A stretch of 64,000 bases of DNA from Terriglobales bacterium (GTDB taxonomy: Bacteria; Acidobacteriota; Terriglobia; Terriglobales; SCQP01): positions 2,157 through 66,156 of the forward strand of contig DATNAC010000087.1 of assembly GCA_035573035.1 (NCBI GenBank), given 5' to 3'. Below the pieces are notes generated by a model. The model was not told the origin of the DNA, searched no databases, and saw only the letters and a list, made by a program, of their open reading frames with translations. Position 1 is the stretch's first letter. Every line of letters starts with the position of its first letter. Positions 3,139 through 56,723 of the stretch are shown here, in pieces. Position numbers and translations under genes: made by a program.

Positions 3139-4077
3139 ATGTCTTTGCGAAACGGAGTCAGCCGGTCCATGCGTGTGTTCCGCGGTGTATTCGCCATCCT
3201 GTTTGCCCTGGCCAGCCTTGCCCTTCTCGCCGCCGCGGCGCCGTTGGCGCCCAACCTGCGCGGCCAGGTGATGATCCTGGTCTACCACAACTTCGGCAAG
3301 GACGCGCGCTGGGGACGGTCGTTCGATAGCTTCGATCGCGACTTGGCGCGGTTGGACGCGGCTGGCTACCGGCCGGTGACGCTGCGGCAATATATCACGG
3401 GGGACTTTATCCTGGCGGCCGGCACCACGCCGGTGGTGCTGACCTTCGACGATGGCTCGGCCTTCCAGGTGAAGTTCACGCCGGACGGGCAAGTGGCGCC
3501 GGATTGTGCGCTCGGACGCTGGATGGCGTTCGCCAAGACGCACCCGGAGTTCCCAGTGCATGGGACCTTCTTTGTCAATCCCGGCACCGGGGTGTTCGGG
3601 CAGCGCGCGTTCGTCAAGCAGAAGCTCGACCTGTTGGTGCAGCTGGGTTCGGAGATCGGCAACCACACCTATAGCCACCCCAAATTCAGCGAGATCAGCC
3701 CCGAGGCGACCGCCAGGGAAATCGGTGAGGGGCAGTACTACATCGAGAAGTGGCTGCCGCACTATCCCTTAACCTCGCTAGCGCTGCCCTACGGCATTCG
3801 CTCGCGGCCGGACCTTCTCGCCTCGCGAGGCGAGTGGACGGGGACGATCTGCAAACAACAGGTCACCGAAAGGTGGCATTACGCGGCGGTGGTGCTGGTG
3901 GGCTCGGGGCCGGCCCCGTCGCCCCTGGTGGGGGGGGAGGACGGCGCCCATCTGCCGCGGATTCAAGTATTCACGCCCGAATTCGACAAGTGGATGAGCT
4001 ATTTCGAGCAGCATCCGGGCCGCCGCTTCGTCAGCGACGGGCAACGCCATGCGGCGGCAAGTCTGCCGGCGCGCTAG
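3139..4077 (+). CDS. Secreted polysaccharide deacetylase (NodB homology domain) family protein
   Basis: Start moved to the in-frame ATG at 3139 (MSLRNGVSRSMRVFRGVFAILFALASLALLAAAAP signal peptide). Carries the TFDDG and GNHTYSHP motifs of the CE4 deacetylase family. The track ORF from 2083 runs antisense through fabI. Confidence 0.8.
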   Translation: MSLRNGVSRSMRVFRGVFAILFALASLALLAAAAPLAPNLRGQVMILVYHNFGKDARWGRSFDSFDRDLARLDAAGYRPVTLRQYITGDFILAAGTTPVVLTFDDGSAFQVKFTPDGQVAPDCALGRWMAFAKTHPEFPVHGTFFVNPGTGVFGQRAFVKQKLDLLVQLGSEIGNHTYSHPKFSEISPEATAREIGEGQYYIEKWLPHYPLTSLALPYGIRSRPDLLASRGEWTGTICKQQVTERWHYAAVVLVGSGPAPSPLVGGEDGAHLPRIQVFTPEFDKWMSYFEQHPGRRFVSDGQRHAAASLPAR

Positions 4078-4120
4078 GCCGCTTCACCCGGGGGCGCGGC
4101 TTCGCTATACTATTGCCTCT

Positions 4121-4381
4121 ATGGCCTACGTGATTGCCGAGCCCTGCATTGGAACCAAAGACAGCGCCTGTGTGGACGCCTGCCCGGTGGACTGTATCCA
4201 TCCCAAAAAGGACGAAGGGGAGTTTGGCTCGGCGGACCAACTGTTCATTGATCCGGTGGAGTGCATTGATTGCGGCGCGTGCGTGCCGGTATGCCCGGTG
4301 TCGGCCATCTTCGCGCTGGACGATCTACCGGAGCAGTGGAAGTCGTTCGCGGAGAAAAACGCCAGCCACTTCGGTCGCTAA
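4121..4381 (+). CDS. fdxA: Ferredoxin, 7Fe type (3Fe-4S plus 4Fe-4S)
   Basis: MAYVIAEPCIGTKDSACVDACPVDCIH...CIDCGACVPVCPVSAI shows the classic FdxA cysteine pattern. ATG at 4121 within track ORF 4049-4381. Confidence 0.9.
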   Translation: MAYVIAEPCIGTKDSACVDACPVDCIHPKKDEGEFGSADQLFIDPVECIDCGACVPVCPVSAIFALDDLPEQWKSFAEKNASHFGR

Positions 4382-5055
4382 CCGTTCGCGGCGAGCGCCT
4401 GCGCGCGCTGCAGCACCGCGTCCAGCATCGCGGGCGTAAGGCGCCCGGTGAAGGTGTTCTGCTGGCTGGGATGATAGCAGTCAAGGCCGCGCCAGCCGCC
4501 GACGGCGAACTCTGCTCCGTGGCCAAACCGCGCCGGCGCGCGCTGCCGAAGCGCCGCGAGCAACTGCCGGTGGGCCAGAGCGCCGAGGCAGACGATCACC
4601 CGCAAGCGGTGCAGCAGCGCCAACTCACGCAGCAAGAAGGGACGGCAGGCGGCGAACTCTTCCGGCGTGGGGCGGTTGCCGGGTGGGGCGCAGCGCGCCG
4701 AGGCGGTGATGAAGACATCGCGCAGGCGAAGGCCGTCGCCGCGGCCGCGGCTCAGCGGCGAGGAGGCCAGACCGGCGCGGTGGAGCGCGGCAAAGAGAAA
4801 ATCGCCGCTGCGATCGCCGGTGAACATCCGCCCGGTGCGGTGGGCGCCGTGCGCCGCCGGGGCCAGGCCGAGCAGCAAGATGCGCGCCCGCGGATCTCCA
4901 AACGAGGGTACCGGCCGCCCCCAGTAGACCTCGTCCGCAAACGCCTTGCGGCGCTGTTGCGCGACCTGGGCGCCATAGGCGGCGAGCCGTGGGCACTGGC
5001 GGCAGGAGGCGACTTCGCGGTGCAGGACGGTCCAGGCCGCTGGGGATGGGGACAT
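4378..5055 (-). CDS. Uracil-DNA glycosylase superfamily protein (family 4/5 type, Fe-S)
   Basis: N-terminal CRQCPRL, then GLAPAAHGAHRTGRMFTGDRSGDFLF (GLAPA-type motif A) and C-terminal HPSQQN motif B. Confidence 0.82.
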   Translation of the reverse strand: MSPSPAAWTVLHREVASCRQCPRLAAYGAQVAQQRRKAFADEVYWGRPVPSFGDPRARILLLGLAPAAHGAHRTGRMFTGDRSGDFLFAALHRAGLASSPLSRGRGDGLRLRDVFITASARCAPPGNRPTPEEFAACRPFLLRELALLHRLRVIVCLGALAHRQLLAALRQRAPARFGHGAEFAVGGWRGLDCYHPSQQNTFTGRLTPAMLDAVLQRAQALAANG

Positions 5056-5062
5056 ATTGGCG

Positions 5063-5668
5063 TCAGCTCCCCAACAGGAAGCGGGCCAGGGTATCGGCTT
5101 TCAAGGCCAGAGTTTGAGCGCGGACCAAGTCCCCTTGGGCCAAGGCTTCCTGGGCCTGGCGGACAAACTCGGCAATCTGGTTGCGAGTGGCCAGTGCCTC
5201 CACGGTGAGGTTGTGCCGCGCATTGAGGACGGTCAGCGCGCGCCGGGTGTGGTCCAGGCTGTTGGAAATGTTGCGGCGGTCAGCGGCCTCCTGGGCGGGG
5301 CTGAGACGGGGAGTGAGTTGCGGACCCGCGGGAAGGGGTTCGCGCGTATCCACCGGCGGGGGCGCGGGCCGGTCCGGCGCGCGCGATGCATTCTCGGCTG
5401 TGCGGCGCGGGGCGGAGTGCGGCGGCGGGCCGACGATCGTGCGGGCGCTCAGTTGGGGCGGCGGCGCGGTGGTGGGGGTGAGTACCGCCGGAGCCGGCAT
5501 CGGCGGCTCCTGCGCCGGGTTGGGCAGCAAGATCGGAGCTTGGAGCACGACGATCGGTGGCGGAGCCGGCGGCCGGCGTTGAAAGAAGCCGCAGCCGGTT
5601 GCGCAGCCGGCGAGGACCATCACCCCCACCCCGCGCCACGGCGGGGCGGAACGTCCGCACCGGCTCAT
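5063..5668 (-). CDS. Proline-rich lipoprotein of unknown function
   Basis: Lipobox VLAGCATGC, a long Pro/Ala-rich linker and a helical C-terminal part. The start overlaps the stop of the upstream kinase gene. No recognisable family. Confidence 0.55.
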   Translation of the reverse strand: MSRCGRSAPPWRGVGVMVLAGCATGCGFFQRRPPAPPPIVVLQAPILLPNPAQEPPMPAPAVLTPTTAPPPQLSARTIVGPPPHSAPRRTAENASRAPDRPAPPPVDTREPLPAGPQLTPRLSPAQEAADRRNISNSLDHTRRALTVLNARHNLTVEALATRNQIAEFVRQAQEALAQGDLVRAQTLALKADTLARFLLGS

Positions 5669-7527
5669 ACCGCATCCTCGCCGGTGCGCAAGGGGAAGCG
5701 CAGCACAAAACTGGCGCCGGGGGGGGCGCTGGGTTCGAGTTCGATGGCGCCGTGATGCAATTGCATGATGCGCGCGGCCAGGGCGAGGCCGATGCCGGTG
5801 CCCTCGGTGCGGGTGGTGAAGTAGAGATCGAAGATCTTTTCGCGGTCCTCGACCGGTACGCCTGGACCTTGGTCGCGCACGCGGATCAAGCCGTAGTGGT
5901 CTTGTTCGAACACCTCGAGTTGAAGGATGCCGGGGCCTGCGGCGGCTTCCATCGCTTGTAATCCATTATTGACCAAGTTGAGCAGCGCCTGCTCCACCAG
6001 ATCCCGGTCGAGCCAGACGTTGGGACCGGGCGCGGGCGCGCGCACCTCCACGTCGATGCCTTTGGCGGCGGCGCCGGCTTGTACGAGCTGGGCCACGCTC
6101 TGCACCATTTCGCTCAGGTCGCCCACCTGCAGGTTGAGCTCCACCGGGCGGCTAAAGTCGAGGAAGGTGCGGACGACGCGGTCCAGGCGATCAATCTCGC
6201 GCCGCATGATCTCGATGTGGGGCTGTAACCCGGTGGCTTCCGCGCCCGCCTTCTCCCGCAGCAGATCGAGGTGGATCGCCATCGCGTTGAGCGGGTTCTT
6301 GACCTCATGGGCCACGCCGCGGGTGAGGCGGCCCACGGCGGAGAGACGGCGGGCCACCTCCAATTCGTTTTCCAGGCGGTAGACGGGCTCGGCATCGCGC
6401 AGGGTGAGGAGCGAGCCAAACTGACCGGAGCGGTCGCGCACCAAGTCGAGCCGGGCCAGGATGGGCCGGCCGCCCGGCAGCCGGTCGGTTTCGCGCGAGG
6501 TGAGAGCCACCTTCTGCCGCACCGCCAGACGGACAGCGCGGTCCAGGCCGGAAGGGCCGGGGAACAGCGCTTCGACCGGGCGGCCGGCGATGTCACCGGC
6601 GGGTAGGCCGAGCAGCCGGGGGGTGGCGGCGCTGGCCATAACGCTTTGTCCAGAGGCGTCAAAGAGCAACAACCCCTCTTCCAGGCTCTCAAGCACATGG
6701 CTGACATTTTCCTGGAGGGTGCTGTAGACCTGGCGCACATCGGCCATTTCGCGGCCGAGGTACTGGATTTTCGACGAAACGATCCCAAACTCGTCACGCT
6801 GGCCTTCGCGCCGCACGAGGGAGGCGGTGGCGCTGGCCGCCTCCGGGGCCAAGGCGTCCAACTGGGCGCGAATCCGTCCCAGCGGGGCCAGGATGGACTC
6901 GGCCAGACTCCAGGCCAGGATGGTCGCGAACAGGACGACCAGGCCGCCATACAGGGCGAGCTGGCGGATTTCCCCAAGCATCGCCAAACGGAGCAATACG
7001 GTGTCCACACCGACCGAAATGGTACCCATGGGGTGGTTGTCAGCCTCGGTGGCGAGGCTGACGGAGTAGATGGCGTCGGCGCCGAAGACCGCCTTGCCCT
7101 GCTCCCAAAGGCCGCTGTGCATGACGTCGCTCAGCAGGCGGCGATTGGGCTGTATCGTGCCCACCAGTTCGGGGTTGGAATCGGCGGCGATGACCCCATC
7201 GGGCGCAACCAGCGCGACGTCCCGGATGGTGTTGTTGTACCCGATTGAGGAGCTGAACAGATTTGCGATGGCGGGGCTGGAATTCAGGCTTTGCAAGAAC
7301 TGTTGCAGTGTGGCCGGGTCGCGGCTCCGCAGTTGCCCCGAGGCATAGGAGGCGGAGAGCTCCTGTTTCATTTCGTTGTAGATCTCGTCGGCCAGGAAGT
7401 CGGCGTGGGTATACACCTCCTGTACGCGCTGCTGAACCACGCGGGCGAGGTAAATGAGGTTCACCGCGAGCACCACCAGCAGCACCAGAAGGGAAATGCC
7501 GAGAGTGAGTTTGGTCTTAAGCTTCAT
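5665..7527 (-). CDS. Membrane sensor histidine kinase (periplasmic sensor, PAS, HisKA, HATPase_c)
   Basis: N-terminal TM MKLKTKLTLGISLLVLLVVLAV. H-box GVAHEVKNPLNAM, N-box LLNLVNNGLQAM, G1 DQGPGV, G2 GTGIGLALA. Confidence 0.9.
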   Translation of the reverse strand: MKLKTKLTLGISLLVLLVVLAVNLIYLARVVQQRVQEVYTHADFLADEIYNEMKQELSASYASGQLRSRDPATLQQFLQSLNSSPAIANLFSSSIGYNNTIRDVALVAPDGVIAADSNPELVGTIQPNRRLLSDVMHSGLWEQGKAVFGADAIYSVSLATEADNHPMGTISVGVDTVLLRLAMLGEIRQLALYGGLVVLFATILAWSLAESILAPLGRIRAQLDALAPEAASATASLVRREGQRDEFGIVSSKIQYLGREMADVRQVYSTLQENVSHVLESLEEGLLLFDASGQSVMASAATPRLLGLPAGDIAGRPVEALFPGPSGLDRAVRLAVRQKVALTSRETDRLPGGRPILARLDLVRDRSGQFGSLLTLRDAEPVYRLENELEVARRLSAVGRLTRGVAHEVKNPLNAMAIHLDLLREKAGAEATGLQPHIEIMRREIDRLDRVVRTFLDFSRPVELNLQVGDLSEMVQSVAQLVQAGAAAKGIDVEVRAPAPGPNVWLDRDLVEQALLNLVNNGLQAMEAAAGPGILQLEVFEQDHYGLIRVRDQGPGVPVEDREKIFDLYFTTRTEGTGIGLALAARIMQLHHGAIELEPSAPPGASFVLRFPLRTGEDAV

Positions 7528-7645
7528 GCGGCGTGGTTGGGCGTGGGGCCCAGCGTGGCGGCGGCGCGCGTTCCGCTGAGGTTCACGCCGATTTGGGGCC
7601 TCGATTCGCTATGCCGGCGCTGCGCCCGGGACGCCGCGACGGCCA

Positions 7646-9013
<1,368 letters not shown>

Positions 9014-9480: not shown

Positions 9481-11640
9481 ATGGCACGATTCAGCACGTG
9501 TTGGAAACAATGGCAAGTACTGACGGTAGCGGTGGCCGTGATGTGTGGCTCGCTAGCGGCAGCGCCCAAACCGGACAACGGCAAAAAGGCGAAGAAGGCG
9601 ACCGCCGCGGCTACGAGCACGACAAATAATCCGAAGACCGACAACGGCAAGAAGGACGCCAAGAAGGACAGTCCAAAGACGAAGAAAGCCGACACGCCGG
9701 CGCCCGCGGCGCAAGCGGCGGCGTCCAGCGGAGTCTTTAGCGACTCCTTCCAGGCAAGCGCCATGCAGGGCTCCTTGTTCGGCACCCCGGGCATCTGGAA
9801 CACCCAGTTCGCGGAGACGTTGCTGCCGGGCCAAGCCAGCGCGGGCGTCTACGTCCAGCGCTACTCCCGCGATCCCGGCGGGTTGGTGTTTACCGACGCC
9901 AACGCCGGCTGGGCGGTCGGCGTCACCAAGTGGTTGGAGTTGAGCTTCAGCTCGACCGGCTACCGACGTATCCGGGTCACCCATCCGGAAGAACTGACCT
10001 TCGGCAGCCAGGGCAGGCTGACCAGCTATAACCCGGTCGCCCCCTTCGCGCGCAATCCGCTGATTTATGGTCCGGTGGACTGGAGCTTGGGCGCGACGAT
10101 CGGCTTGCTGTCGCAAGACCGCGGCGATCCCATCGGGCTGGCCTACCAAATCACCTATCATGTGCCCTACAACCCCACCTTGGGGTTGGGCGTTAACTAT
10201 TACGGGGTAAGCACCACGGAGCCCACCCTCACCGAGACCGTGATGATTGACAAGTGGCTGGGTACGGCCGGCGAGATGGCCGCCAACCTGGGCTACCAGC
10301 ACAACGGCACGGTGGATGCGGGCGGCGTGATCAATCTGCCGCTTCGTGACCAGTTCACCTATGGCTTTGGGGAACTGTTCCCGCTGCACTCGCGCTTGCA
10401 AGGCGTGGTGGAGTTCGACGGCAATGTGCCCTTCGGCGCTGGAGCTCACACCGATCTGTTCGGAGTGCCTTCACCCTTCGACGTGAACTTCGGCATTCGC
10501 TTCAACCCGATCTCGTGGATGGGAATTAACGCTGGCTACCGGTTCGGAGCGCATTCCAGCAGCAAGATCGCGATCCCGACCAACGTCAGCGGCTTCGTCT
10601 TCGGCTTGAGCTTTGGGCCGCCGCCGGTGAAAGCGGCGCCCCCGCCGCCCCCGCCGACCCCGACCCTGGCTTGCAGCGTGGATACCAGTACGGTCCAGCC
10701 GGGGGCGACCGTCCACATCAGCTCGACAGTGACGCCGCAGGGACTGCCGTACACCTATTCCTGGACCACCACCGGCGGCAAACTGAGCCCGGCGGACAAC
10801 GCCGCCACCCTCGATACCACCGGCCTGGCGCCAGGAATGTACACCGTGACCGGGCGCGTGGATAATGGCTCGGGCGGCACCGCGGACTGCACCGCCAACG
10901 TGGAAGTGCGCGAGCCGGTGCGCAATCCGCCGACCGCCTCCTGCTCGGTGGAGCCCTCGTCGCCGGTGGCGGCGGGCGCGCCGCTGACCTTCAGCGCACA
11001 GGCTGCGAGCCCGGATAACCGGCCGCTGACCTACGCTTGGCAGGTGTCCGCCGGCCATCCGGATACAACCTCGCAAGCTACCCTCCACGACGACACAACC
11101 GGGGCCGCTCCGGGCACGGTTACCGCCAACCTCACCGTCACCGACGATCGGGGTCTGACGGCGACCTGCTCGGCACAGGGCACCATCCAGCAGCCGCCGC
11201 CGGCGCCGCAAGCGAGCTTGGCGACGACCCTGCAGTTCAAACCCAACAGCGCGCGCGTGGACAACGCCGCCAAGGCTGCATTGGACGACGTCGCGCTGCG
11301 GCTGCAGCAGGACGCCACCGCCAAGGCCGTCATTGTGGGCTCGGCCACCTCGGATGAAGTAGCCGGGCGCCGCCGCGGCCTGACACCCGCGGCCACCACC
11401 AAGCTGGCGGAGGAGCGCGCGGTCAACGCCAAAGCCTACTTGGTCACCGAGAAGGGGATTTCCGCCGACCGGATCGAGGTCCGGCAGTCCACGGACAATC
11501 CGCACCAGGCTGAAGTCTGGGTGGTGCCGCAAGGCGCCTCCTACACCGGCTCGGGGCAGACCTTCGACGAGAACGCGGTCAAGCCGGCGCCCACGCGGCG
11601 GCCGCGCCGGCCGCGCGCCAAGACCTCCGGCGGGAAGTAG
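9481..11640 (+). CDS. OmpA-family outer-membrane protein with Lys-rich N-terminal stretch, barrel-like region and two Cys-bracketed Ig/PKD-like repeats
   Basis: Signal peptide and GGAGGAGGG RBS. The C-terminus (LQFKPNSARVDNAAKAALDDVA...AVNAKAYLVTEKGISADRIEV) is OmpA_C-like. Two about 85-aa repeats of the form CSV...TY.W...G...C. Confidence 0.8.
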   Translation: MARFSTCWKQWQVLTVAVAVMCGSLAAAPKPDNGKKAKKATAAATSTTNNPKTDNGKKDAKKDSPKTKKADTPAPAAQAAASSGVFSDSFQASAMQGSLFGTPGIWNTQFAETLLPGQASAGVYVQRYSRDPGGLVFTDANAGWAVGVTKWLELSFSSTGYRRIRVTHPEELTFGSQGRLTSYNPVAPFARNPLIYGPVDWSLGATIGLLSQDRGDPIGLAYQITYHVPYNPTLGLGVNYYGVSTTEPTLTETVMIDKWLGTAGEMAANLGYQHNGTVDAGGVINLPLRDQFTYGFGELFPLHSRLQGVVEFDGNVPFGAGAHTDLFGVPSPFDVNFGIRFNPISWMGINAGYRFGAHSSSKIAIPTNVSGFVFGLSFGPPPVKAAPPPPPPTPTLACSVDTSTVQPGATVHISSTVTPQGLPYTYSWTTTGGKLSPADNAATLDTTGLAPGMYTVTGRVDNGSGGTADCTANVEVREPVRNPPTASCSVEPSSPVAAGAPLTFSAQAASPDNRPLTYAWQVSAGHPDTTSQATLHDDTTGAAPGTVTANLTVTDDRGLTATCSAQGTIQQPPPAPQASLATTLQFKPNSARVDNAAKAALDDVALRLQQDATAKAVIVGSATSDEVAGRRRGLTPAATTKLAEERAVNAKAYLVTEKGISADRIEVRQSTDNPHQAEVWVVPQGASYTGSGQTFDENAVKPAPTRRPRRPRAKTSGGK

Positions 11641-11794: not shown

Positions 11795-13753
11795 ATGTTC
11801 GGTCGTGACCTAGCCAGAACCGTGGTGGCGGCGTTGTGTCTGGGAGCGAGTGTGGCAGTAGCGTCGCCCCCCTCGGCCCAGGCAAAGTTCGTGGATTCGT
11901 CGCTCATGGCGGCGGGAGTAGCGGGGCTGCCGCCGGGCGGCACGGTCCGGTCCCTCGCGCTGGACCCATCAACGACGGGGCGGGTGTTGTTGGGGACCAC
12001 CACCGGGGTGATTTTTGTATCGCAGGACGGCGGCTCTACTTGGCAATTTTTCAGCCGCGTGGCTCCCCACGATGACTGGGTGGTCTCCAGCCTGGTGGCG
12101 GTACCGGGGGATTCCGGCCACTGGTTTGCTTCCCTGTGGAGCTGGGGCGCTCCCGGCGGCGGGGTCTACGAATCGCGCGATGGCGGCCGGAGCTGGCAGC
12201 CCCGGTTCGAGGGGCATGCCGTGCGCGCACTGGCGCTGGCGGCATCAGCACCGCGCATTTTGGTCGCGGCGACGCTGGACGGCGTCTACCGTAGCCAGGA
12301 TGCGGGCCAGACCTGGCAGTTGATCTCGCCGCTTCACGACCGGGAGCTTGCCAACATCGAATCGGTGGCCATCGATCCCGCCGATCCGCGGGAGATCTAC
12401 GTCGGTACCTGGCATCTGCCTTGGAAGACCGTCAATGGCGGGCACGACTGGTGGCAGATGCGGCAGGGCGTGATTGACGACAGCGACGTGTTCTCCATCG
12501 CGGTGGATCGGCAGCAGCCGGCGACGGTATACCTCAGCGCCTGTTCCGGGATCTACCGCAGCGACAACCGCGGCAACCTGTTTCGCAAGATTCAGGGCAT
12601 TCCCTATACGGCGCGGCGCACCCCGGCGTTGGTGCAGGACCCGCGCGACCCCGCCACCATTTACGCCGGCACGACCCAGGGACTGTGGGTGACGCACAAC
12701 GGCGGCGCCGCCTGGGAGCGGATCACCAGCCCGGAGCTGCGCATCAACGCGGTGTTGCTGCTGCCGGGCGCGGCTCAAAGCGAGCGCATTCTGTTGGGCA
12801 CCGACTTCGCCGGCGTGTACGCCAGCAACGATGGCGGCAAGACTTTCGCCGTTTCGAATGAAGGTTTCTCCAACCGGCGGGTGTCCGCCGTGGCCGAAAG
12901 TCCCGAAGGGCGGTACGTGGCGGTAACCGGGGATGAGGCTTGGGGCGGAATCTTTTTTGAACCCGCAAACGGAGGCGCCGCGCAGCAGATGCCGCCGCCG
13001 CTGGCGAACCGCGACGTCTATGGACTGCACTGGTCAGCGGCAGGCTTGCTGGCGGCTACCGCCGAGGGGGTATATTGGCGCCGGCCAGCGCTGCCTGCGA
13101 AGCGCGGTCCCCACCGCGAGCCTGTATGGACGCTGGTGAAGACTGCGCCGCACGATCACGTGTACGCCTTGGCGAGCCCGAGCCAGGGCTCCCCGACGGT
13201 ATACGCGGCGTCGCAGGGAGGGCTCTACAAGAGCGAGGACGGAGGCCAGAGCTGGTCGTTGATGCGGGAGGCCCCCGCGCCGCTCTACCAGGTGCTGGCC
13301 CTGCCTGCGGCGGCGGAGGCGGACGACGCCTGGATTTATGTCGCTGGAGACGGCTACGTGCTTCGGAGCCGGGACCAGGGGCGGCACTTCCTCCCCGGGC
13401 GCTTGGCGATCACTGGACGAATCAATCAACTCGCTTGGGCGGATCTGGGCGGCGGCCGGACCTTGGAGTTGGCGGCGACTTCGCGCGGCCTCTATCAATC
13501 CCGCGACCAAGGGGCGACGTGGACGCTGAGCGGTCACGGACTCCCGGCGATAGGTATCCGGACCGTGCACGTGCAAGCGAACGCGATCTTTGCGGCCGCC
13601 GAAACCGTGGGGGCCGTCTATCGTTCTGAAGATGGCGGCGTCCATTGGCAGACGGTGGAGCTGCCTCCCGCGGTGGAGTCGTTGGCGCGGGAAGCGCCGG
13701 CCCTGACCTTGGCTTGGCCCGCGGCGGAGATCGGGAGCCCCGGCGGCCGGTAA
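11795..13753 (+). CDS. Secreted BNR/Asp-box repeat protein (beta-propeller, Ycf48/sortilin-like)
   Basis: Signal peptide. At least 9 S-x-D-x-G-x-x-W type boxes (SQDGGSTWQ, SRDGGRSWQ, SQDAGQTWQ, NDGGKTFA, SEDGGQSWS, SRDQGATWT, SEDGGVHWQ and others). Confidence 0.8.
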   Translation: MFGRDLARTVVAALCLGASVAVASPPSAQAKFVDSSLMAAGVAGLPPGGTVRSLALDPSTTGRVLLGTTTGVIFVSQDGGSTWQFFSRVAPHDDWVVSSLVAVPGDSGHWFASLWSWGAPGGGVYESRDGGRSWQPRFEGHAVRALALAASAPRILVAATLDGVYRSQDAGQTWQLISPLHDRELANIESVAIDPADPREIYVGTWHLPWKTVNGGHDWWQMRQGVIDDSDVFSIAVDRQQPATVYLSACSGIYRSDNRGNLFRKIQGIPYTARRTPALVQDPRDPATIYAGTTQGLWVTHNGGAAWERITSPELRINAVLLLPGAAQSERILLGTDFAGVYASNDGGKTFAVSNEGFSNRRVSAVAESPEGRYVAVTGDEAWGGIFFEPANGGAAQQMPPPLANRDVYGLHWSAAGLLAATAEGVYWRRPALPAKRGPHREPVWTLVKTAPHDHVYALASPSQGSPTVYAASQGGLYKSEDGGQSWSLMREAPAPLYQVLALPAAAEADDAWIYVAGDGYVLRSRDQGRHFLPGRLAITGRINQLAWADLGGGRTLELAATSRGLYQSRDQGATWTLSGHGLPAIGIRTVHVQANAIFAAAETVGAVYRSEDGGVHWQTVELPPAVESLAREAPALTLAWPAAEIGSPGGR

Positions 13754-13923
13754 GGCAGGCTCCGTTCCGGTCACCGTTCCAATCGGGAATGACAATTCCG
13801 GAAATGGGCACGGTACGGGAAGCGACGGGGTGGCCCAAGCCGGATCGCGGTTGTCCCTTTTCGGCCGATAAATCCTGCACAGACAATAGGTTGGCGCACC
13901 CGCAGCGGGAGCCGGTGCCGGGT

Positions 13924-13939
13924 TGGCACATCGGGTGCA
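13924..13939 (+). promoter_or_regulatory. Candidate sigma-54 (-24/-12) promoter in front of the second activator gene
   Basis: TGGCAC-ATCGG-GTGCA with GG-N10-GC spacing, 33 nt before the ATG at 13973. GAAGG RBS in between. Confidence 0.5.
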
Positions 13940-13972
13940 AGTCCCTGGGGCGAAGGAAAGCCGAAGGCCCCT

Positions 13973-15352
13973 ATGACTGGACTACCACACATACTCATTG
14001 CCGATGATCAGGAAGCGGTGCGGGAGATTTGCGTCAGCCTGGCTACCAGTCTCGGATACCGCGCGAGCGGCGTTGCCAGCGGCAGGGAGGCGATGCGCGT
14101 CTGGGACCAGGAGCCGGCCCATGTGCTGGTGTGCGACGTGCGGCTGCCCGACATGAGCGGAGTCGAGCTCATGAAGCGCTGGCGGCAGCGTTGGCCCGCG
14201 GCCCCGGTGCTGTTGACGACCGCATACGGCACGGTGGGCATGGCGGTGGAGGCAATGAAGCTGGGCGCCAGCGATTACGTCACCAAACCCTTCGAACTCG
14301 AGGAAATGCGGCTGCTATTGCAGAATTGCGTGCGCCGCGCGCAGGTCGAAGGCGAAGGACGACGGCTGCATTTGGGGGCGCGCTCGCCGGCGGCGGGCGG
14401 CACGCTGATTGGAAGTTCGCCCTCCATGCAGCGCGTCTTCCGCTTGATCGGCAAGGTGGCGCAAAGCCGGTATTCGGTGCTCATTCTGGGCGAGAGTGGC
14501 ACCGGAAAGGAAGTGGTCGCGCGGGCATTGCACTATACCGGACCGGAGCGCGACCGCCCTTTCCTGCCGGTCGATTGCGGCGCCTTGGTGCCCTCCCTGG
14601 TGGAGAGCGAGTTGTTCGGATACGTGAAGGGGGCGTTTACCGGCGCGCACCACAACCATCAAGGCCTGTTGGAGGTCGCGAACGGCGGTACCGTCTTTTT
14701 GGATGAGATCGGCGAACTCCCGCTTGACCTCCAGGTCAAGCTGCTGCGTGCGATCCAAGAGAAAGAGGTGCGCCCGGTTGGGGCCACGCGGCGCATCCCG
14801 GTGGACGTGCGCATCGTAGCCGCCACCAACCGCGACTTGCAGACGGCGGTGGCGGAGGGGCGGTTCCGCAAGGATTTATTCTTCCGCTTGAACGTGGTCA
14901 GCATCAAGCTGCCGCCGCTACGCGAGCGCGTGATGGACATTCCGCTGCTGGTCGAGCACTTTCTCGACCGCTTCACGCCGCCGGGCATGCCGGTGCGCAC
15001 CTTCAGCGATGAGGCCATGGCGCGCATGCTGGCCTACGACTGGCCGGGCAATATCCGCGAACTGGAGAACTGCGTGGAACGCACGCTGGCGTTGGCGCCG
15101 GGTCCGCGGCTGGAGGCGGCGGATCTGCCCAGCGCGTTGCAGCAACTACAACCGCGGGCGCCGATCGCCCGCCACGATTCCAATACCGTACGAGCCATGG
15201 TTGAGGTGGAGCGCGAAGCGATTCTGGATGCCCTCTCCCAGGCCAAAGGCGACAAGCTCCTGGCAGCCAAGCTGCTGGGCATCGGCAAGACGACGATCTA
15301 CCGCAAACTCAAGGAGTACACCTTTGCGGCGCAAGCCGGAGGCGGCCAATGA
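13973..15352 (+). CDS. Sigma-54-dependent response regulator (REC, AAA+, Fis-type HTH; NtrC family)
   Basis: REC domain ILIADDQEAV...LVCDVRLPDMSG. GESGTGKEVVARALH, KGAFTGA, and HTH LLAAKLLGIGKTTIYRKLKEY. Confidence 0.93.
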   Translation: MTGLPHILIADDQEAVREICVSLATSLGYRASGVASGREAMRVWDQEPAHVLVCDVRLPDMSGVELMKRWRQRWPAAPVLLTTAYGTVGMAVEAMKLGASDYVTKPFELEEMRLLLQNCVRRAQVEGEGRRLHLGARSPAAGGTLIGSSPSMQRVFRLIGKVAQSRYSVLILGESGTGKEVVARALHYTGPERDRPFLPVDCGALVPSLVESELFGYVKGAFTGAHHNHQGLLEVANGGTVFLDEIGELPLDLQVKLLRAIQEKEVRPVGATRRIPVDVRIVAATNRDLQTAVAEGRFRKDLFFRLNVVSIKLPPLRERVMDIPLLVEHFLDRFTPPGMPVRTFSDEAMARMLAYDWPGNIRELENCVERTLALAPGPRLEAADLPSALQQLQPRAPIARHDSNTVRAMVEVEREAILDALSQAKGDKLLAAKLLGIGKTTIYRKLKEYTFAAQAGGGQ

Positions 15353-16014
15353 CCTGCCACGTCCTTCTTCTGAGCCGCGATGAACAGTTGGCCAAGCGGG
15401 TGGAGCGCAGCCTGCCGGCGGCTCCAGGTGTCGAATTTCACTGGGGCGCCTCCTACCGCGTGTGCGACGACCGAAGAGGCTGGTTGCTGCTTCTGGTGGA
15501 CGCGCGCATCGTGAATCCCAGCCTGGCGGTGGAGGCTCCGGTTCCGGAACCGGATGCCGCCGTCGCCGTCTTGGGTGGCGAGTTGGACCCGACCCCGGTG
15601 CTGTGGCTGGGAGAGCCACCGCTGATCTCCACCCAGTCGGGGATTTTGGCGAATCCGGAGCGCTCCCCCCTGGGGAGCCAGCCGGTGCGGGTGATCGATT
15701 ACCTGAACCGCGGTTTAGCCCCCTCCAAACTGGGCTTCATCCTCTATCAGCATCTCACCGCGGCATACTTGCACCGGGTTCGCACGCCGCCACAGTTGAG
15801 TCAACCTGATCTCGACGGTGGCGAGGTGCTGCGGCAAATCAATAACACCCTGGCCGGAATCCTGGGCAATGCGGAACTGGCCATGGATGGAGCCCGTAAG
15901 CTGCCGCCGCAAATCGTGCTCCGGCTGCGCCGCATCGCCGAGTTGGCCGCCGAAATGCGCGATCTGGTACGTGCCATGCCGGAGACCAGACACGACCGCC
16001 GATCGGCGGCATAA
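15349..16014 (+). CDS. REC-like / DHp-like protein with a degenerate H-box (no ATPase domain)
   Basis: ATGA overlap with the activator gene. The C-terminus GGEVLRQINNTLAGILGNAELAMDG aligns to the kinase H-box A-H-E-I-N-N-P-L, but His is replaced by Arg (codon 15832-15834). No N/G1/G2 boxes follow. The N-terminus (HVLLLSRDE...LLLLVDARI...VIDYLNRG) is receiver-like. Confidence 0.65.
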   Translation: MTCHVLLLSRDEQLAKRVERSLPAAPGVEFHWGASYRVCDDRRGWLLLLVDARIVNPSLAVEAPVPEPDAAVAVLGGELDPTPVLWLGEPPLISTQSGILANPERSPLGSQPVRVIDYLNRGLAPSKLGFILYQHLTAAYLHRVRTPPQLSQPDLDGGEVLRQINNTLAGILGNAELAMDGARKLPPQIVLRLRRIAELAAEMRDLVRAMPETRHDRRSAA

Positions 16015-16021
16015 TGTTCTG

Positions 16022-16330
16022 GTGACTCTCGAGGATACGCCCGCCGCCAGCGACTGGAAAGCGGCACTGGTAACCGTTCGCACCCAAATCGCCGACTATC
16101 AACGCGAAGGTACCTCGACGCCGGGCAAGCTCAAGCGCGCCGCGCGGCTGCGGGCCTGCCGCATGGCGCTGCGCGGCTTCGAGAGCGATCACGCCGCGGC
16201 CGTGGGCGCGCTGAAGCAGGCCGTCAGCGCCATCGAAGCCGCGGAAAAAGACGACAATTGGCGGCAGCAGGCGGAGATCATCGTGACGCTGCGCCAGGAC
16301 GTGGATCGTCTGATCGGGCTCGAAGCCTAG
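16022..16330 (+). CDS. Hypothetical helical protein (GTG start inferred)
   Basis: High GC3 in this frame through 16330, starting from the GTG just after the upstream stop. No recognisable family. The track ORF 15818-16330 overlaps the previous gene. Confidence 0.4.
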   Translation: MTLEDTPAASDWKAALVTVRTQIADYQREGTSTPGKLKRAARLRACRMALRGFESDHAAAVGALKQAVSAIEAAEKDDNWRQQAEIIVTLRQDVDRLIGLEA

Positions 16331-16357: not shown

Positions 16358-16627
16358 TTGTTTGGGATCGGTCATCACGCCTTCGAAGGCGAGTTTCTCG
16401 AGGTCAAGGCACCGGAACGGCTGGTATTCGCCGGACAAATTTCGCGGCTCCCGGAAAGCCGCGTGGTTACCGAAATTCAGTTTGAGGAGCACGGTCAGGG
16501 AACCAGAATCAAGCTGCGGCAAACCCACGCGCTCGCATCGGAGGCGACGGCGGGAGCGCGCGCCGGATGGACACAGTCGCTCGATAAACTGGAGGAGTGG
16601 CTGGCGGGCGAGGGGCGCAGATCGTGA
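16358..16627 (+). pseudogene. N-terminally truncated SRPBCC/AHSA1-family remnant
   Basis: 89 aa matching only the C-terminal half of Aha1/SRPBCC proteins (GEFLEVKAPERLVF...TEIQFEEHGQGTRIKLRQTH...AGWTQSLDKLEEWL). About 55-60 N-terminal residues are missing, and the only start is a TTG. Confidence 0.5.
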
Positions 16628-35150: not shown

Positions 35151-35166
35151 TGGCATTTGGCGTGCT
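35151..35166 (+). promoter_or_regulatory. Candidate sigma-54 (-24/-12) promoter
   Basis: TGGCAT-TTGGC-GTGCT with GG-N10-GC spacing, 20 nt before a small ORF and 185 nt before the M23 peptidase ATG. Confidence 0.35.
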
Positions 35167-43201: not shown

Positions 43202-46165
43202 ATGGGTGCATGTTGGATTCGCCGCGCCGGCAATGCCGCCGGCGCCGCCGGATTGGCCTTGGCGCTGGTGCTGTTCGCCGGCGCTCCGCTGCGAGCGCAA
43301 GATACCGCCCAGATTCAGGGCACGGTCACCGATACCAGCGGCGCCGCCCTGCCGGGGGTCACGGTGACCGCCACCAATGTGGCCACCGGGGCCAGCCGGG
43401 TGGTGGAAGCCGGCGCCGACGGCCGCTTCCTGCTTCCGGCGCTGCCGCTCGGCACCTACAAGATTCAGTACGTCAAAACCGGCTTCTCCACCACCGAGGT
43501 CAACGGCGTCTTGCTGCAAATTGGCACCGTGATTGATCGGCACGACCAGCTCAAGGTGGCGGCCCAGGCGGCCACGGTCGAGGTCTCCGGGACCGCTCCC
43601 GCCATCGATACCTCCAAGAGCAACGTGGCCGGAGTCATTACCGACAAGCAAATCGATCAGCTGCCGATTCAAAACCGGCAGTACCTCAACCTCTCGCTGC
43701 TGATGCCGGGCACCACCCAGGACGCCTCGCGCTCGTTCTACAGCAACGTCCAATTGGGGGGCGGGGACCACTACTACTCCAACGGCTTTACGGTGGACGG
43801 GGTCAACAACACTTGGGCCGAAATGGGCGAGCCGCGCGAGAACTTTCCCGAGGGGGCGGTGGCCGAGTTCAAGGTCTACAGCTCGCAGTTCAAGGCGGAT
43901 GAGGGCGGCATGGCGTCCGGCGGCGCGGTCTCGGTGGTTACCAAGAGCGGCACCAACCAGTTCCACGGCGACGCCTTCGAGTACTGGCGCAACCAGGACC
44001 TGAACCGCGACAACAGCTTCCAGAAGTCCGCCGAGGTGTCGCAACACACCGGCAAGGCGCCGCTCGACCGCAACCAGTTCGGCGGCTCGCTGGGCGGGCC
44101 CATCCTGAAAAACAAGCTGCACTTCTTTGGCGCCTGGGAGTCCACCCTGACCCAGGGTTCGTATACGGTCTTTAGCAACAGCCCGATTTTTGCCGCCTAC
44201 GACGGGGTCTACAAGCAGCCCAGCCACGACGATCTGCTGACCGTGCGCGGCGACTACCAGATCAACAACGACCAAAGCCTATTCGTGCGTTTCGGCGACG
44301 AATGGAACCTGCTCACCTGCCAGGGCTGCGGCGGCGCCAACTCCCCCAACGGCGGCTATGACGGTCTGCTGCCGCGCCACTCGCTGGTGGTGGGCCACAC
44401 CTGGGCGTTGGGCTCGACCATGGTCAACGACGCCCGCTTCCAGTACGCCAAGGCCAGTTACCTGCTGGCGCCTAGCCAGTGTCCGCAGGCCTGCGGACAG
44501 AACATCTGGACGCAGATCGGACAGTATCCGGCCTCACGGTTTGCGCCGTACGTGACCACGCTCAGCTTCCCGGACTTTTCCATTGGGAGCGACTACGGGG
44601 ACGACGGCATCGAGAGCCACTGGGAGGTGTCCGACAGCTTCAGCATCTTCCACGGCGCGCACAACCTGAAGTTTGGCTTTGACGACAGCTATATTCCATT
44701 TGCCGACGATGCGCCGGTGGGGATTAAAGGTGCGTTCAGCTTTACCGCCGATCCGACCACCGCGATCAATCCCGCCGACCCGGTGGGCCAGGGCACGCTG
44801 TCGGCCGCGAACTTGTACACCGCGTCGTATGGGCCGACCTCGTTTTCTCAAACCGTCCCGCCGGTGTTGACTTCGGTGCCGACCGCGGAGACCAGCTACT
44901 ACGTCACCGACGACTACAACGGCATCCACAACCTGACCTTAAGCGCCGGGCTGCGCTACGACCGGGAGTTTGGATCCTTCGATGAGCATATCAACCCGGC
45001 CGCCTTCGCTCAGCCGGTGCCCTTCCTGGGCGATCCCAGCCAACGCGGCGACAAGAACAACTTCGGGCCGCGCCTGGGATTGTCGTGGAACATTCACGGC
45101 GACGGCAAGGATATCGTGCGAGCCGGCTACGGCATTTACTACAACAACCTCCAGACCCTGCAGAACTTTTCCGAAGACCGCAATTTTGCCCAGAGTGTGG
45201 TGAGCATCACCTGTTCCAAACCGGGCCAGGCGGGCTGCCCGTCCTATCCCAGCGCCTTCGCCAACGGCCAGACCGCGGCCACGGTGCTGCCCACGGTGAC
45301 GGTGCTGGCGCCCAACTATCAGAACCCGTATTCGCAGCAGTACAACCTGGGCTACTCGCGCGAGATCAGTCCCAACTTCTCCATTCACGCCGACGGCGTG
45401 TATGAGTTGACGCTGCGCGATTACAAGGTGCTGGATCTCAACTACCCGACCAGCGGCACTACCCGGCCGCTGCCGCAGTACGCGCGCATTCTCCAGCACG
45501 ACCCCATTTCGCATTCCCAGTACAAGGCGCTGTATGTACGCGCCGACAAGCGCTTTGCCCGCCGCTACCAGTTCCTGGTGTCCTACTCCCTCACGAGCTG
45601 CTACGATGACAACCCGCAGGGTACGATCACCAACCTCGCCAATTGGGGCCAGGATTGGGGACCCTGCTCGATCGACCGGCGCAATGCGCTGGTGGCCAGC
45701 AGTTCCTACCAGGCACCGTGGGGCATTACCTTGGGGGCGGTCTACAACATCCGTTCCTCGGAACCCTTCAGCGAGACCTCAACCACCCGCAACGTCGACG
45801 GTTCCAGCCAGTATGTGACCGGCACCAGCCGCAATCAGGGCCGCCGCGACTTGGACTACACCCAGATCAACGCGTACCGCACCACGCTGACCTACAAGGA
45901 CAACCAGGGGGTCACCCATTTTTTCCCCACGGTCGACCCATCCATGCTCGCCAGCGGGCGCTACAACGAACTCGACATCCGCGCCGCGCGGGGCTTCAAC
46001 CTGGGCGAAAGCCGCCACCTCGATGTGATTGCCCAGGTGTTCAACGTCATGGGCACCTACAACTACACCGGCATCACCACCAGTCTCAGCTCGCTCAGTT
46101 GGGGACAGCCCACCGGGGCGGGACCCTTGCAGCAGGCGGAGTTGGCGTTACACTTCACTTTCTAG
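43202..46165 (+). CDS. TonB-dependent outer-membrane receptor with carboxypeptidase-regulatory-like domain (Oar-like)
   Basis: 987 aa. Signal peptide, then IQGTVTDTSGAALPGVTVTATNVATG...DGRFLLPALPLGTYKIQYVKTGF, and a long barrel ending in LALHFTF. Confidence 0.9.
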   Translation: MGACWIRRAGNAAGAAGLALALVLFAGAPLRAQDTAQIQGTVTDTSGAALPGVTVTATNVATGASRVVEAGADGRFLLPALPLGTYKIQYVKTGFSTTEVNGVLLQIGTVIDRHDQLKVAAQAATVEVSGTAPAIDTSKSNVAGVITDKQIDQLPIQNRQYLNLSLLMPGTTQDASRSFYSNVQLGGGDHYYSNGFTVDGVNNTWAEMGEPRENFPEGAVAEFKVYSSQFKADEGGMASGGAVSVVTKSGTNQFHGDAFEYWRNQDLNRDNSFQKSAEVSQHTGKAPLDRNQFGGSLGGPILKNKLHFFGAWESTLTQGSYTVFSNSPIFAAYDGVYKQPSHDDLLTVRGDYQINNDQSLFVRFGDEWNLLTCQGCGGANSPNGGYDGLLPRHSLVVGHTWALGSTMVNDARFQYAKASYLLAPSQCPQACGQNIWTQIGQYPASRFAPYVTTLSFPDFSIGSDYGDDGIESHWEVSDSFSIFHGAHNLKFGFDDSYIPFADDAPVGIKGAFSFTADPTTAINPADPVGQGTLSAANLYTASYGPTSFSQTVPPVLTSVPTAETSYYVTDDYNGIHNLTLSAGLRYDREFGSFDEHINPAAFAQPVPFLGDPSQRGDKNNFGPRLGLSWNIHGDGKDIVRAGYGIYYNNLQTLQNFSEDRNFAQSVVSITCSKPGQAGCPSYPSAFANGQTAATVLPTVTVLAPNYQNPYSQQYNLGYSREISPNFSIHADGVYELTLRDYKVLDLNYPTSGTTRPLPQYARILQHDPISHSQYKALYVRADKRFARRYQFLVSYSLTSCYDDNPQGTITNLANWGQDWGPCSIDRRNALVASSSYQAPWGITLGAVYNIRSSEPFSETSTTRNVDGSSQYVTGTSRNQGRRDLDYTQINAYRTTLTYKDNQGVTHFFPTVDPSMLASGRYNELDIRAARGFNLGESRHLDVIAQVFNVMGTYNYTGITTSLSSLSWGQPTGAGPLQQAELALHFTF

Positions 46166-56707: not shown

Positions 56708-56723
56708 AGCAAGCCGGATGCCA
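56708..56723 (-). promoter_or_regulatory. Candidate sigma-54 (-24/-12) promoter (best match in the window)
   Basis: The minus strand reads TGGCAT-CCGGC-TTGCT, 27 nt before the Hsp20 ATG at 56680, inside a 54-nt spacer. Confidence 0.6.

Follow-up and report, generated by a model that had tools for sequence, protein, structure and literature searches.

A DHp protein without the H-box histidine, encoded in overlap with an NtrC-type sigma-54 activator in a Terriglobales bacterium: a putative offshoot of a phosphorelay family

We analysed a 64,000-nucleotide stretch of DNA from a Terriglobales bacterium (GTDB lineage Bacteria; Acidobacteriota; Terriglobia; Terriglobales; SCQP01), taken from NCBI GenBank assembly GCA_035573035.1 (contig DATNAC010000087.1, positions 2,157 to 66,156 of the forward strand). 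This whole stretch, with a G+C content of 66%, is referred to as the window. An earlier note had drawn attention to a gene for an NtrC-type sigma-54 activator (gene A) and, overlapping its end, a gene for a kinase-like protein (gene B) in which both the phospho-accepting histidine and the ATPase domain are lacking. This anatomy holds, and four points go beyond the note: a putative relay-type ancestry of B, a third gene in the operon (gene C), a kinase and regulator pair in synteny with the A-B-C block, and a sigma-54 promoter that is not the same thing as autoregulation. More specifically, B belongs to a family of small proteins with a receiver-like N-terminus and a dimerization and histidine phosphotransfer (DHp) hairpin, most of which keep the histidine and lie directly 3′ of a hybrid kinase gene.

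Anatomy of genes A and B

Gene A carries the parts expected of an NtrC-type enhancer-binding protein, namely a REC domain, an AAA+ domain with GAFTGA and a Fis-type helix-turn-helix (Table 1). Its receiver is intact, as had been claimed, with the complete active-site quintet D11-D12, D55, T83 and K105; no NCBIfam equivalog matched gene A at cut-off. The ATG of gene B overlaps the TGA of gene A as ATGA, also as described before, with GGAGG 6 nucleotides upstream of the B start. The G+C content at third codon positions is 0.76-0.81 for A, B and C (0.76 for B), in line with coding genes.

The earlier description of B as a receiver-like N-terminus followed by a DHp-like helix is borne out by hhalign profile alignments, an AlphaFold2 model, Foldseek and relatives that pass the HisKA threshold. 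The H-box reads V-L-R-Q-I-N-N-T-L, with Arg162 (CGG, as reported) for His, Gln163 for Glu and Thr167 for Pro, and departs from the pattern H-E/D-x-x-N/T-P. N166, at H+4, is invariant across every alignment and provides the Asn/Thr of HisKA-type phosphatases. Nothing resembling N, G1 or G2 boxes follows, again as claimed: B ends 59 residues past the His column and has no Pfam match to HATPase_c, the domain that a complete sensor kinase would carry. Pfam HisKA reaches 15.3 bits on B, below the cut-off of 26.9 (E 0.021, residues 163-209), and 17 of 20 members of the His-less clade likewise give sub-threshold HisKA matches (best E 2.3e-4). The profile of this clade nevertheless aligns to the His-retaining relatives over both domains (hhalign 99.8%, E 1.6e-28, 180 columns), and the HisKA scores of these relatives, 37-40 bits, lie above the threshold; judged from such alignments, the HisKA-type homology of B is firm. 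In the AlphaFold2 monomer the hairpin consists of helices 157-180 and 187-209, with a block-mean pLDDT (predicted local distance difference test) of 84-91 over residues 161-210. An NCBIfam search with B returned nothing, and sequence matches in the PDB, sought with B or with the profile of its clade, all stayed below threshold. A candidate origin of this hairpin as a copy of a neighbouring kinase DHp found no support: blastp of B against the PAS kinase in the window found nothing, and the best match to a hybrid kinase had E 0.038.

For the N-terminal part, a Pfam scan of B gave no REC match. The family profile of B aligns to true receivers with an hhalign probability of 89.7% (E 1.8e-6, 100 columns). 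The AlphaFold2 model of B (pLDDT 79.5) places strands in receiver order, followed by a long helix alpha5 (residues 125-145), a variable linker and the helical hairpin. Foldseek comparison of this model with the PDB retrieved, as best matches, receivers with a long helix or a DHp (WspR, 6ob8, LvrB, NtrX and NtrC1) at E of about 3e-4 to 3e-3, matches to REC proteins overall having E of 3e-4 to 1e-2. A receiver fold for the N-terminus is supported by these profile and model comparisons, and through sensitive methods only. The HisKA and REC similarity that the earlier note proposed to seek with profiles is therefore present in the hhalign comparisons, but not in Pfam, where HisKA stays below threshold and REC is missing. 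The pocket of B retains only D11 and D51 of the receiver quintet, with R10 for the first Asp, G88 for Thr (T83) and R121 for Lys. Throughout the B family D11, D51, P83 and R121 are almost invariant, and the conserved D11/D51/R121 pocket hints at a ligand or phosphoryl site.

Table 1. Features of the A-B-C block and of neighbouring genes, with positions in the window
Feature	Position	Strand	Basis or remark
Sigma-54 type promoter box, TGGCAC-N5-GTGCA = TGGCACATCGGGTGCA	13924-13939	+	33 nt 5′ of gene A start
Gene A, NtrC-type sigma-54 activator, 459 aa	13973-15352	+	Pfam matches
Gene A REC	13991-14314	+	Response_reg, E 5.7e-27
Gene A phospho-Asp D55	14135-14137	+	Residue check
Gene A AAA+	14405-14905	+	Sigma54_activat, E 3.4e-69
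Gene A GAFTGA (residues 220-225)	14630-14647	+	Residue check
Gene A lid	14921-15160	+	AAA_lid_14
Gene A HTH_8	15203-15319	+	Pfam
Gene B, 221 aa, receiver-like domain and DHp hairpin	15349-16014	+	Open reading frame (ORF), hhalign, AlphaFold2
Receiver-like domain of B, residues 1-124	15349-15720	+	hhalign, AlphaFold2, Foldseek
B D11	15379-15381	+	Aligned to receiver D12
B D51	15499-15501	+	Aligned to phospho-Asp D55
B R121	15709-15711	+	Aligned to receiver K105
Helix alpha5 of B with clade-specific motif SKLGFILYQHLTAAYLHRVR, residues 126-145	15724-15783	+	Alignment
DHp helix 1 of B, residues 157-180	15817-15888	+	Alignments, hhalign
Arg162 (CGG) in the His column of B	15832-15834	+	Alignments
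N165-N166 of B	15841-15846	+	Alignments
DHp helix 2 of B, residues 187-209	15907-15975	+	AlphaFold2 model
Gene C, 102 aa, GTG start, predicted four-helix bundle	16022-16330	+	ORF, structure model
Gene C invariant loop EGTSTPGK	16106-16129	+	Alignment
Membrane PAS-HisKA-HATPase_c kinase	5665-7527	-	Gene call, Pfam
Paralogous sigma-54 regulator	7646-9013	-	Gene call, Pfam
OmpA-PKD outer-membrane protein	9481-11640	+	Pfam
BNR/sortilin-like beta-propeller protein	11795-13753	+	Pfam

The B family and its gene contexts

An exhaustive HMMER search against 1.84 billion representatives returned 114 matches at E <=1e-3, all of at most 291 amino acids bar two low-complexity ones. There is no complete kinase among these 114 relatives and no ATPase domain; in P0126, the longest, HisKA alone was matched (proteins are numbered P and loci L). 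A profile search gave 3,673 matches at E <=1e-5, of which some may be generic HisKA proteins; the best 120 of them have 192-260 amino acids each and are in their great majority annotated with HisKA only. The family itself, a large one whose members have about 200-275 amino acids, has its hosts in Acidobacteriota, mainly Terriglobia and Acidiferrales. In public sources it goes by no more than histidine kinase or HisKA-domain protein, and no description of it was found in a full-text literature search, whose coverage leaves out most subscription journals.

The His column was tallied over the 245 sequences with a scorable motif (244 fetched sequences and the B of the window). It holds His in 224 and, in the other 21, Arg (eight), Ala (six), Gly (two), Gln (two), Cys, Tyr and Asp (one each). 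All non-His sequences belong to the clade of the window except P0204, the one with Asp. The substitution that the earlier note wished to see checked in orthologues is thus conserved as a His-less state, which defines a clade, but not as an arginine, the residue varying between R, A, G, Q, C and Y. P0204, from the His-retaining clade and available as a protein only, reads LRDEVNNPLT; a phosphomimetic variant or a sequencing error is possible.

Where the His is retained, B lies directly 3′ of a GAF/PAS-HisKA-HATPase_c-REC hybrid kinase of 545-1083 amino acids in 32 of 33 genome loci, and the two genes often overlap by 4 nucleotides. Wherever the flank is long enough, an orthologue of A precedes this kinase-B pair; these A orthologues share 50-55% identity with the A of the window, compared with 41% for the window's own paralogue. 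No histidine phosphotransfer (HPt) domain is annotated among the Pfam matches listed for the His-retaining loci. A hybrid kinase requires a His carrier to the terminal receiver, and the candidate that comes first to mind is a His-bearing DHp protein coupled to the kinase and encoded in one operon with the regulator. Such a gene context suggests that His-retaining B acts as a Spo0B/ChpT-like relay between the receiver of the hybrid kinase and the activator. At one locus (L024:5626-6270), a His-retaining B homologue is found 3′ of OmpA-PKD and BNR genes, and neither activator nor hybrid kinase was detected between.

The contexts of the His-less sequences are different. In one distance tree, the His-less clade has a small His-retaining clade as its sister, both apart from the main three-gene group, and by this tree the His-less state would have arisen once. 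The hybrid kinase is already missing from the sister clade, where A is directly followed by B (L041, L042). Another locus of the sister clade (L043:71-2639) has B (P0169) followed by an overlapping non-hybrid PAS-HisKA-HATPase_c kinase, the reverse of the usual order. In all His-less loci with a readable upstream gene (about a dozen: the window, L001/L036, L035, L044, L048-L050 and L052-L056), B lies directly 3′ of A with no kinase between, and the A-B overlap of 4 nucleotides is seen in the window, L001, L035, L036, L048 and L050. Neither the window nor any other His-less locus was found to contain a hybrid kinase. A relic of one near A-B was also sought and rejected, since tblastn of two hybrid kinases over the window recovered the PAS kinase and two receivers only.

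The His-less clade comprises at least 20 cluster representatives (50% identity) with an intact ORF of similar length, and the available orthologues share about 45% amino-acid identity. Their alignment has 11 invariant and 25 nearly invariant columns; N166, L168, G173, N174, A175 and L177 are invariant, and the L-x-G-I-L-G-N-A-E-L segment after N166 is invariant or nearly so. Within the H-box, the His column drifts, the Glu at H+1 is mostly Gln and the Pro at H+5 has become A, T, L or D. The clade also has a motif of its own in helix alpha5, SKLAFILHQHLAAAYLRR (residues 126-143 of the window's B; SKLAFILHQHL), where Q134 never varies and at least 90% of the clade have H135 (15751-15753). This motif is missing from the His-retaining relatives, Q134 and H135 being absent from most of them.

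Gene C, 3′ of B, has a length of 100-114 amino acids and is found in this place in most His-less loci, though it is missing from one (L035). In a tblastn search over 37 loci (35 of them His-retaining) it was present in His-less loci only, and it is also present in the His-less loci that were added later. Its family comprises 29 clusters, and all that carry a source name are 'hypothetical protein' of Terriglobales; the product of C in the window has an identical counterpart in a Terriglobales metagenome-assembled genome. Twenty-four columns are invariant, with the core RTQIADYEREGTSTPGKLKRAARLR, and a basic helix reads KLKRAARLR. The structure model (pLDDT 90.5) is a four-helix bundle with no significant structural match in the PDB. 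We considered gene C as a hidden HPt that would provide the His missing from B and rejected this: its sole recurrent His column holds H, R, Y or Q, and the bundle is generic, with a match to CheA3 P1 at E 0.95. Two loci differ between B and C: L050 has an extra 222-amino-acid ORF without a Pfam match there (L050:8229-8897), and L055 a gap of about 850 nucleotides (about 3894-4747). An 89-amino-acid ORF (16358-16627, plus strand) follows C in the window; its match to AHSA1 is confined to the last two-thirds of the profile (positions 46-124 of 125), so the ORF is possibly truncated or frameshifted. A DUF4147/MOFRL glycerate-kinase-like gene takes its place in other genomes.

The box upstream of gene A, TGGCACATCGGGTGCA, is the sole exact match to TGGCAC-N5-KTGCW across the window and agrees with 10 of the 11 specified positions of TGGCAC-N5-TTGCW (GG-N10-GC elements). 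A search allowing one mismatch gave four matches in 64 kb against five expected by chance, so the box alone lacks statistical significance; the other three lie at 35151-35166 (+), 43522-43537 (+) and 56708-56723 (-). Boxes are however found 27-35 nucleotides 5′ of the A start in four loci (the window, L036, L048 and L050), in DNA that is otherwise poorly conserved upstream of A, and this conserved position argues for a real sigma-54 promoter at 13924-13939. The earlier note took the box to imply autoregulation. The promoter stands on the positional evidence, but its driver could be A or the neighbouring paralogous regulator. A repeat finder, applied upstream of the box for an enhancer-like inverted repeat, returned one short palindrome only. 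Short palindromic elements (GGAATgacaATTCC and AATTCCGGAAAT) are located at 13786-13805 (+), about 120-140 nucleotides 5′ of the box, a spacing typical of enhancers. Two sigma-54-like boxes, TGGTACGGCAGTTGCT (L048:9248) and TGGTGCGGCGGTTGCT (L050:9215), both on the plus strand, are found at the end of gene C near the called MOFRL start, and these may be a second promoter in the A-B-C block.

Further upstream, the OmpA-PKD and BNR/sortilin-like genes precede A on the same strand, and the PAS kinase and its regulator are divergent from them; a 40-amino-acid ORF was called between these two (7524-7646). This arrangement is common to four genomes (the window, L048, L049 and L050), with the plus-strand order OmpA-PKD, BNR/sortilin-like, A, B, C and then DUF4147/MOFRL, the last of which is outside the window. 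OmpA-PKD and BNR genes are found 5′ of A in His-less loci (L036 and L048-L050) and in some His-retaining ones; it is possible that they are targets or co-regulated cell-surface genes. The BNR/sortilin-like protein narrowly misses the cut-off of the F510_1955 glycosylhydrolase family, scoring 173 bits where 175 are needed. By tblastn, the window has no kinase-like gene other than the PAS kinase, 6.4 kb upstream of A-B-C. The claim that no cognate kinase is nearby is therefore right for the operon, which has none, but has to be read beside this kinase, which has its own regulator and keeps its place in four genomes.

Candidate roles of B

From the observed anatomy, homology, gene contexts and conservation, we infer that B docks on the receiver of A, likely as a dimer, and lowers the activity of A by dephosphorylating it or by sequestering it through binding alone, a tentative reading to which we give somewhat less than even weight. 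B would be a pseudo-phosphotransferase, derived from a dimeric DHp relay protein that was once encoded directly 3′ of a hybrid kinase and that most likely passed phosphate from the receiver of this kinase to the activator A. In the lineage of the window the hybrid kinase, the His, the adjacent Glu and the helix-kink Pro would have been lost, with the docking helix and the phosphatase Asn kept. Because kinase and His are both gone in this clade, relay through the H-box site is impossible. The ATGA overlap would have B made in a fixed ratio with A, and B would either speed the dephosphorylation of phosphorylated A, as a natural kinase-minus, phosphatase-plus DHp, or only bind. If A drives the operon, the sigma-54 promoter would close a feedback loop; candidate inputs are gene C and the receiver-like pocket of B. 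The phosphatase-like, anti-kinase and connector roles proposed in the earlier note are all candidate roles.

The phosphatase form of this reading draws on engineered kinases. CrdS is a HisKA kinase with the NtrC-type partner CrdA, and its H371A mutant keeps most phosphatase activity, the half-life of phosphorylated CrdA being 2.6 min with H371A, 0.7 min with the wild type and 53.5 min without the kinase (PMC3510030). In the same protein, E372A is kinase-dead with wild-type phosphatase activity, and N375A abolishes phosphatase activity (PMC3510030). The DHp of EnvZ without the catalytic domain likewise has phosphatase activity, as cited in PMC3510030. Given this mutant pattern in CrdS and the N166 that B has kept, B carries a residue set (Asn kept, His and Glu lost) that fits a kinase-minus, phosphatase-plus DHp.

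Several observations weigh against this account of B. The His is not always dispensable, as the H610A variant of PleC has neither kinase nor phosphatase activity (PMC3510030), and without the conserved Pro and Glu the DHp of B may have another geometry. The best-conserved residues of its N-terminus are the receiver-pocket positions D11, D51 and R121, for which docking alone offers no explanation; the same applies to the alpha5 motif with Q134 and H135, gained alongside the loss of the H-box His, which simple docking leaves unexplained. Gene C is conserved more strongly than B and has no assigned role. Finally, the A orthologue of L050 (6040-7455) has Glu for the phospho-Asp and Asp-Asn for the metal-pocket Asp-Asp, and that of L048 (6569-7981) has an Asp-Thr metal pocket, B and C being intact at both loci. 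Since B is retained beside these degenerate receivers, dephosphorylating A cannot be its role everywhere.

The degenerate receivers in turn give more weight to a role of B that is independent of phosphorylation. B would then be a partner of A, an anti- or co-activator in which the relay interface is reused for binding, and might set the assembly of the AAA+ ring on a signal read by its pocket or by gene C; we regard the partnership and this way of working alike as unlikely, though well short of negligible. Such a partner would account for the persistence of B and of the 4-nucleotide overlap where A has Glu at the phospho-Asp (L050) or Thr for a metal-binding Asp (L048), for a His column that is unconstrained, and for a clade-specific helix motif and a gene C that appeared with the His loss. 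The A receiver is however intact in seven of nine distinct His-less loci, including the window, a sign that phosphorylation still counts there, and the exposed Asn at H+4, beside the lost His, stays invariant.

We also considered that B acts on a kinase, for instance the syntenic PAS kinase, by forming a DHp heterodimer or a cap, as a pseudokinase-type modulator or anti-kinase. The synteny of this PAS-HisKA-HATPase_c kinase with A-B-C in four genomes agrees with such a target, as does the translational coupling of His-retaining B to a kinase rather than to A. A precedent is ChrS lacking its catalytic domain, a pseudokinase that heterodimerizes with HrrS and reshapes signalling according to PMC9491836. 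But the DHp of B is no closer to that of the PAS kinase than to others (blastp gave no significant match), gene coupling has moved to A in the His-less clade, and a regulator of its own is encoded next to the PAS kinase; we consider a kinase target rather improbable.

Still lower, and in our view quite improbable, stands a rewired relay in which B carries phosphate on another residue, H135 of alpha5 or D51. All members of the His-less clade have Q134 and at least 90% have H135, two residues that most His-retaining relatives lack, and D11, D51 and R121, almost invariant in the family, align with D12, D55 and K105. Yet in the pocket the first Asp and the Thr are missing and Lys is replaced by Arg, nothing assigns to H135 a donor or an acceptor, the operon encodes no kinase, and the same literature search found no precedent.

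That the B gene has lost all function and is what is left of a decaying kinase or relay gene, as the losses of His, Glu and Pro, the sub-threshold HisKA score and the absent partner kinase gene might suggest, is scarcely credible given the intact ORFs of similar length in at least 20 cluster representatives, whose alignment shows 11 columns without any change and 25 with hardly any, a 4-nucleotide A-B overlap in at least six loci, a coding-like third-position G+C content, conserved motifs that were gained and not merely lost, and an ATPase domain in no relative of any kind. The earlier note had held that His-retaining orthologues with a downstream ATPase domain would make B simply a decayed kinase; the HMMER relatives have no such domain, and on this ground, together with the conserved His-less clade, we reject the decayed kinase.

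Relation to known systems and meaning for Acidobacteriota

The nearest functional parallels to a docking B of relay ancestry are Spo0B of Bacillus and ChpT of Caulobacter, dimeric DHp histidine phosphotransferases that, like B, have a HisKA-like hairpin without kinase activity. ChpT stands between CckA and CtrA, and the His-retaining relatives of B hold the matching place between the receiver of a hybrid kinase and the terminal regulator (PMC3433190; PMC9981736). The His-less loci do not hold this place. The extra domain of Spo0B and ChpT is a pseudo-ATPase alpha/beta domain at the C-terminus; that of B is receiver-like and N-terminal, and the protein stops with the hairpin. Both phosphotransferases have a phosphorylatable His on DHp helix 1, which the B of the window lacks. 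The terminal regulator at the A-B locus is a sigma-54 activator, unlike in the Spo0B and ChpT systems, and a PDB profile search matched neither protein.

In residue pattern, B resembles the CrdS variants H371A and E372A and the isolated DHp of EnvZ, where phosphatase activity needs neither the His nor the H+1 acid, nor strictly the catalytic domain, but does need the Asn/Thr at H+4 (PMC3510030). Those variants were engineered from complete kinases, whereas B is natural, conserved and stand-alone, also lacks the Pro, and has a putative phosphatase activity. The pseudokinases and accessory kinase-like proteins RocA, ChrS_CA-fs, PsmA and DivL offer another likeness, having lost catalysis and shaping two-component signalling via contacts, as given in PMC7028121, PMC9491836 and PMC12963549. 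By the same sources they derive from full-length sensor or hybrid kinase genes, ChrS_CA-fs acting through a kinase-kinase contact. B, in contrast, is small, has a receiver-like domain and a gene that overlaps that of a regulator, and belongs to a family that never has an ATPase domain.

Structurally, LvrB (8vc9) and a dual-sensor kinase (6ob8) have a receiver, a long helix and a DHp hairpin and are among the best matches of B; they are described as kinases of 307-379 residues, whereas B stops at the hairpin, and their identity to B is 11-13%. The sole sequence-level PDB match of the His-less profile, and a borderline one (E 0.03-0.05), is an FrzS-type pseudo-receiver. FrzS is annotated as a response regulator homolog and has no DHp hairpin, whereas B keeps D51 at the phospho-acceptor position. 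Taken as a whole, B fits best among signalling proteins that derive from a DHp without being kinases, outside both the Spo0B/ChpT group and the engineered mutants. A wider reading, which we put forward as possible and with clear doubt, is that the B family is a third, undescribed class of dimeric DHp phosphotransferases for relays from hybrid kinases to sigma-54 activators, of which the clade of the window would be a natural conversion into a His-less regulator with the four-helix C as a new partner; phosphochemistry would be eroding on both B and A, the Asp pocket of A being degenerate in some genomes.

Lists of domains (kinase, receiver and sometimes HPt), through which two-component signalling is commonly viewed, miss two features of this locus. 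In the Acidobacteriota, a very abundant soil phylum, the step from hybrid kinase to sigma-54 activator appears to be taken by a stand-alone relay protein made of a receiver-like domain and a DHp. The His-less lineage, in turn, would be in nature what the kinase-minus, phosphatase-plus mutants are by engineering, and offers a clean system in which a DHp hairpin alone could be a dedicated phosphatase or else a phosphorylation-independent switch of an AAA+ activator. Together, the three-gene operon with His, the two-gene arrangement with His and the His-less arrangement with gene C would form a graded series for the rewiring of a phosphorelay.

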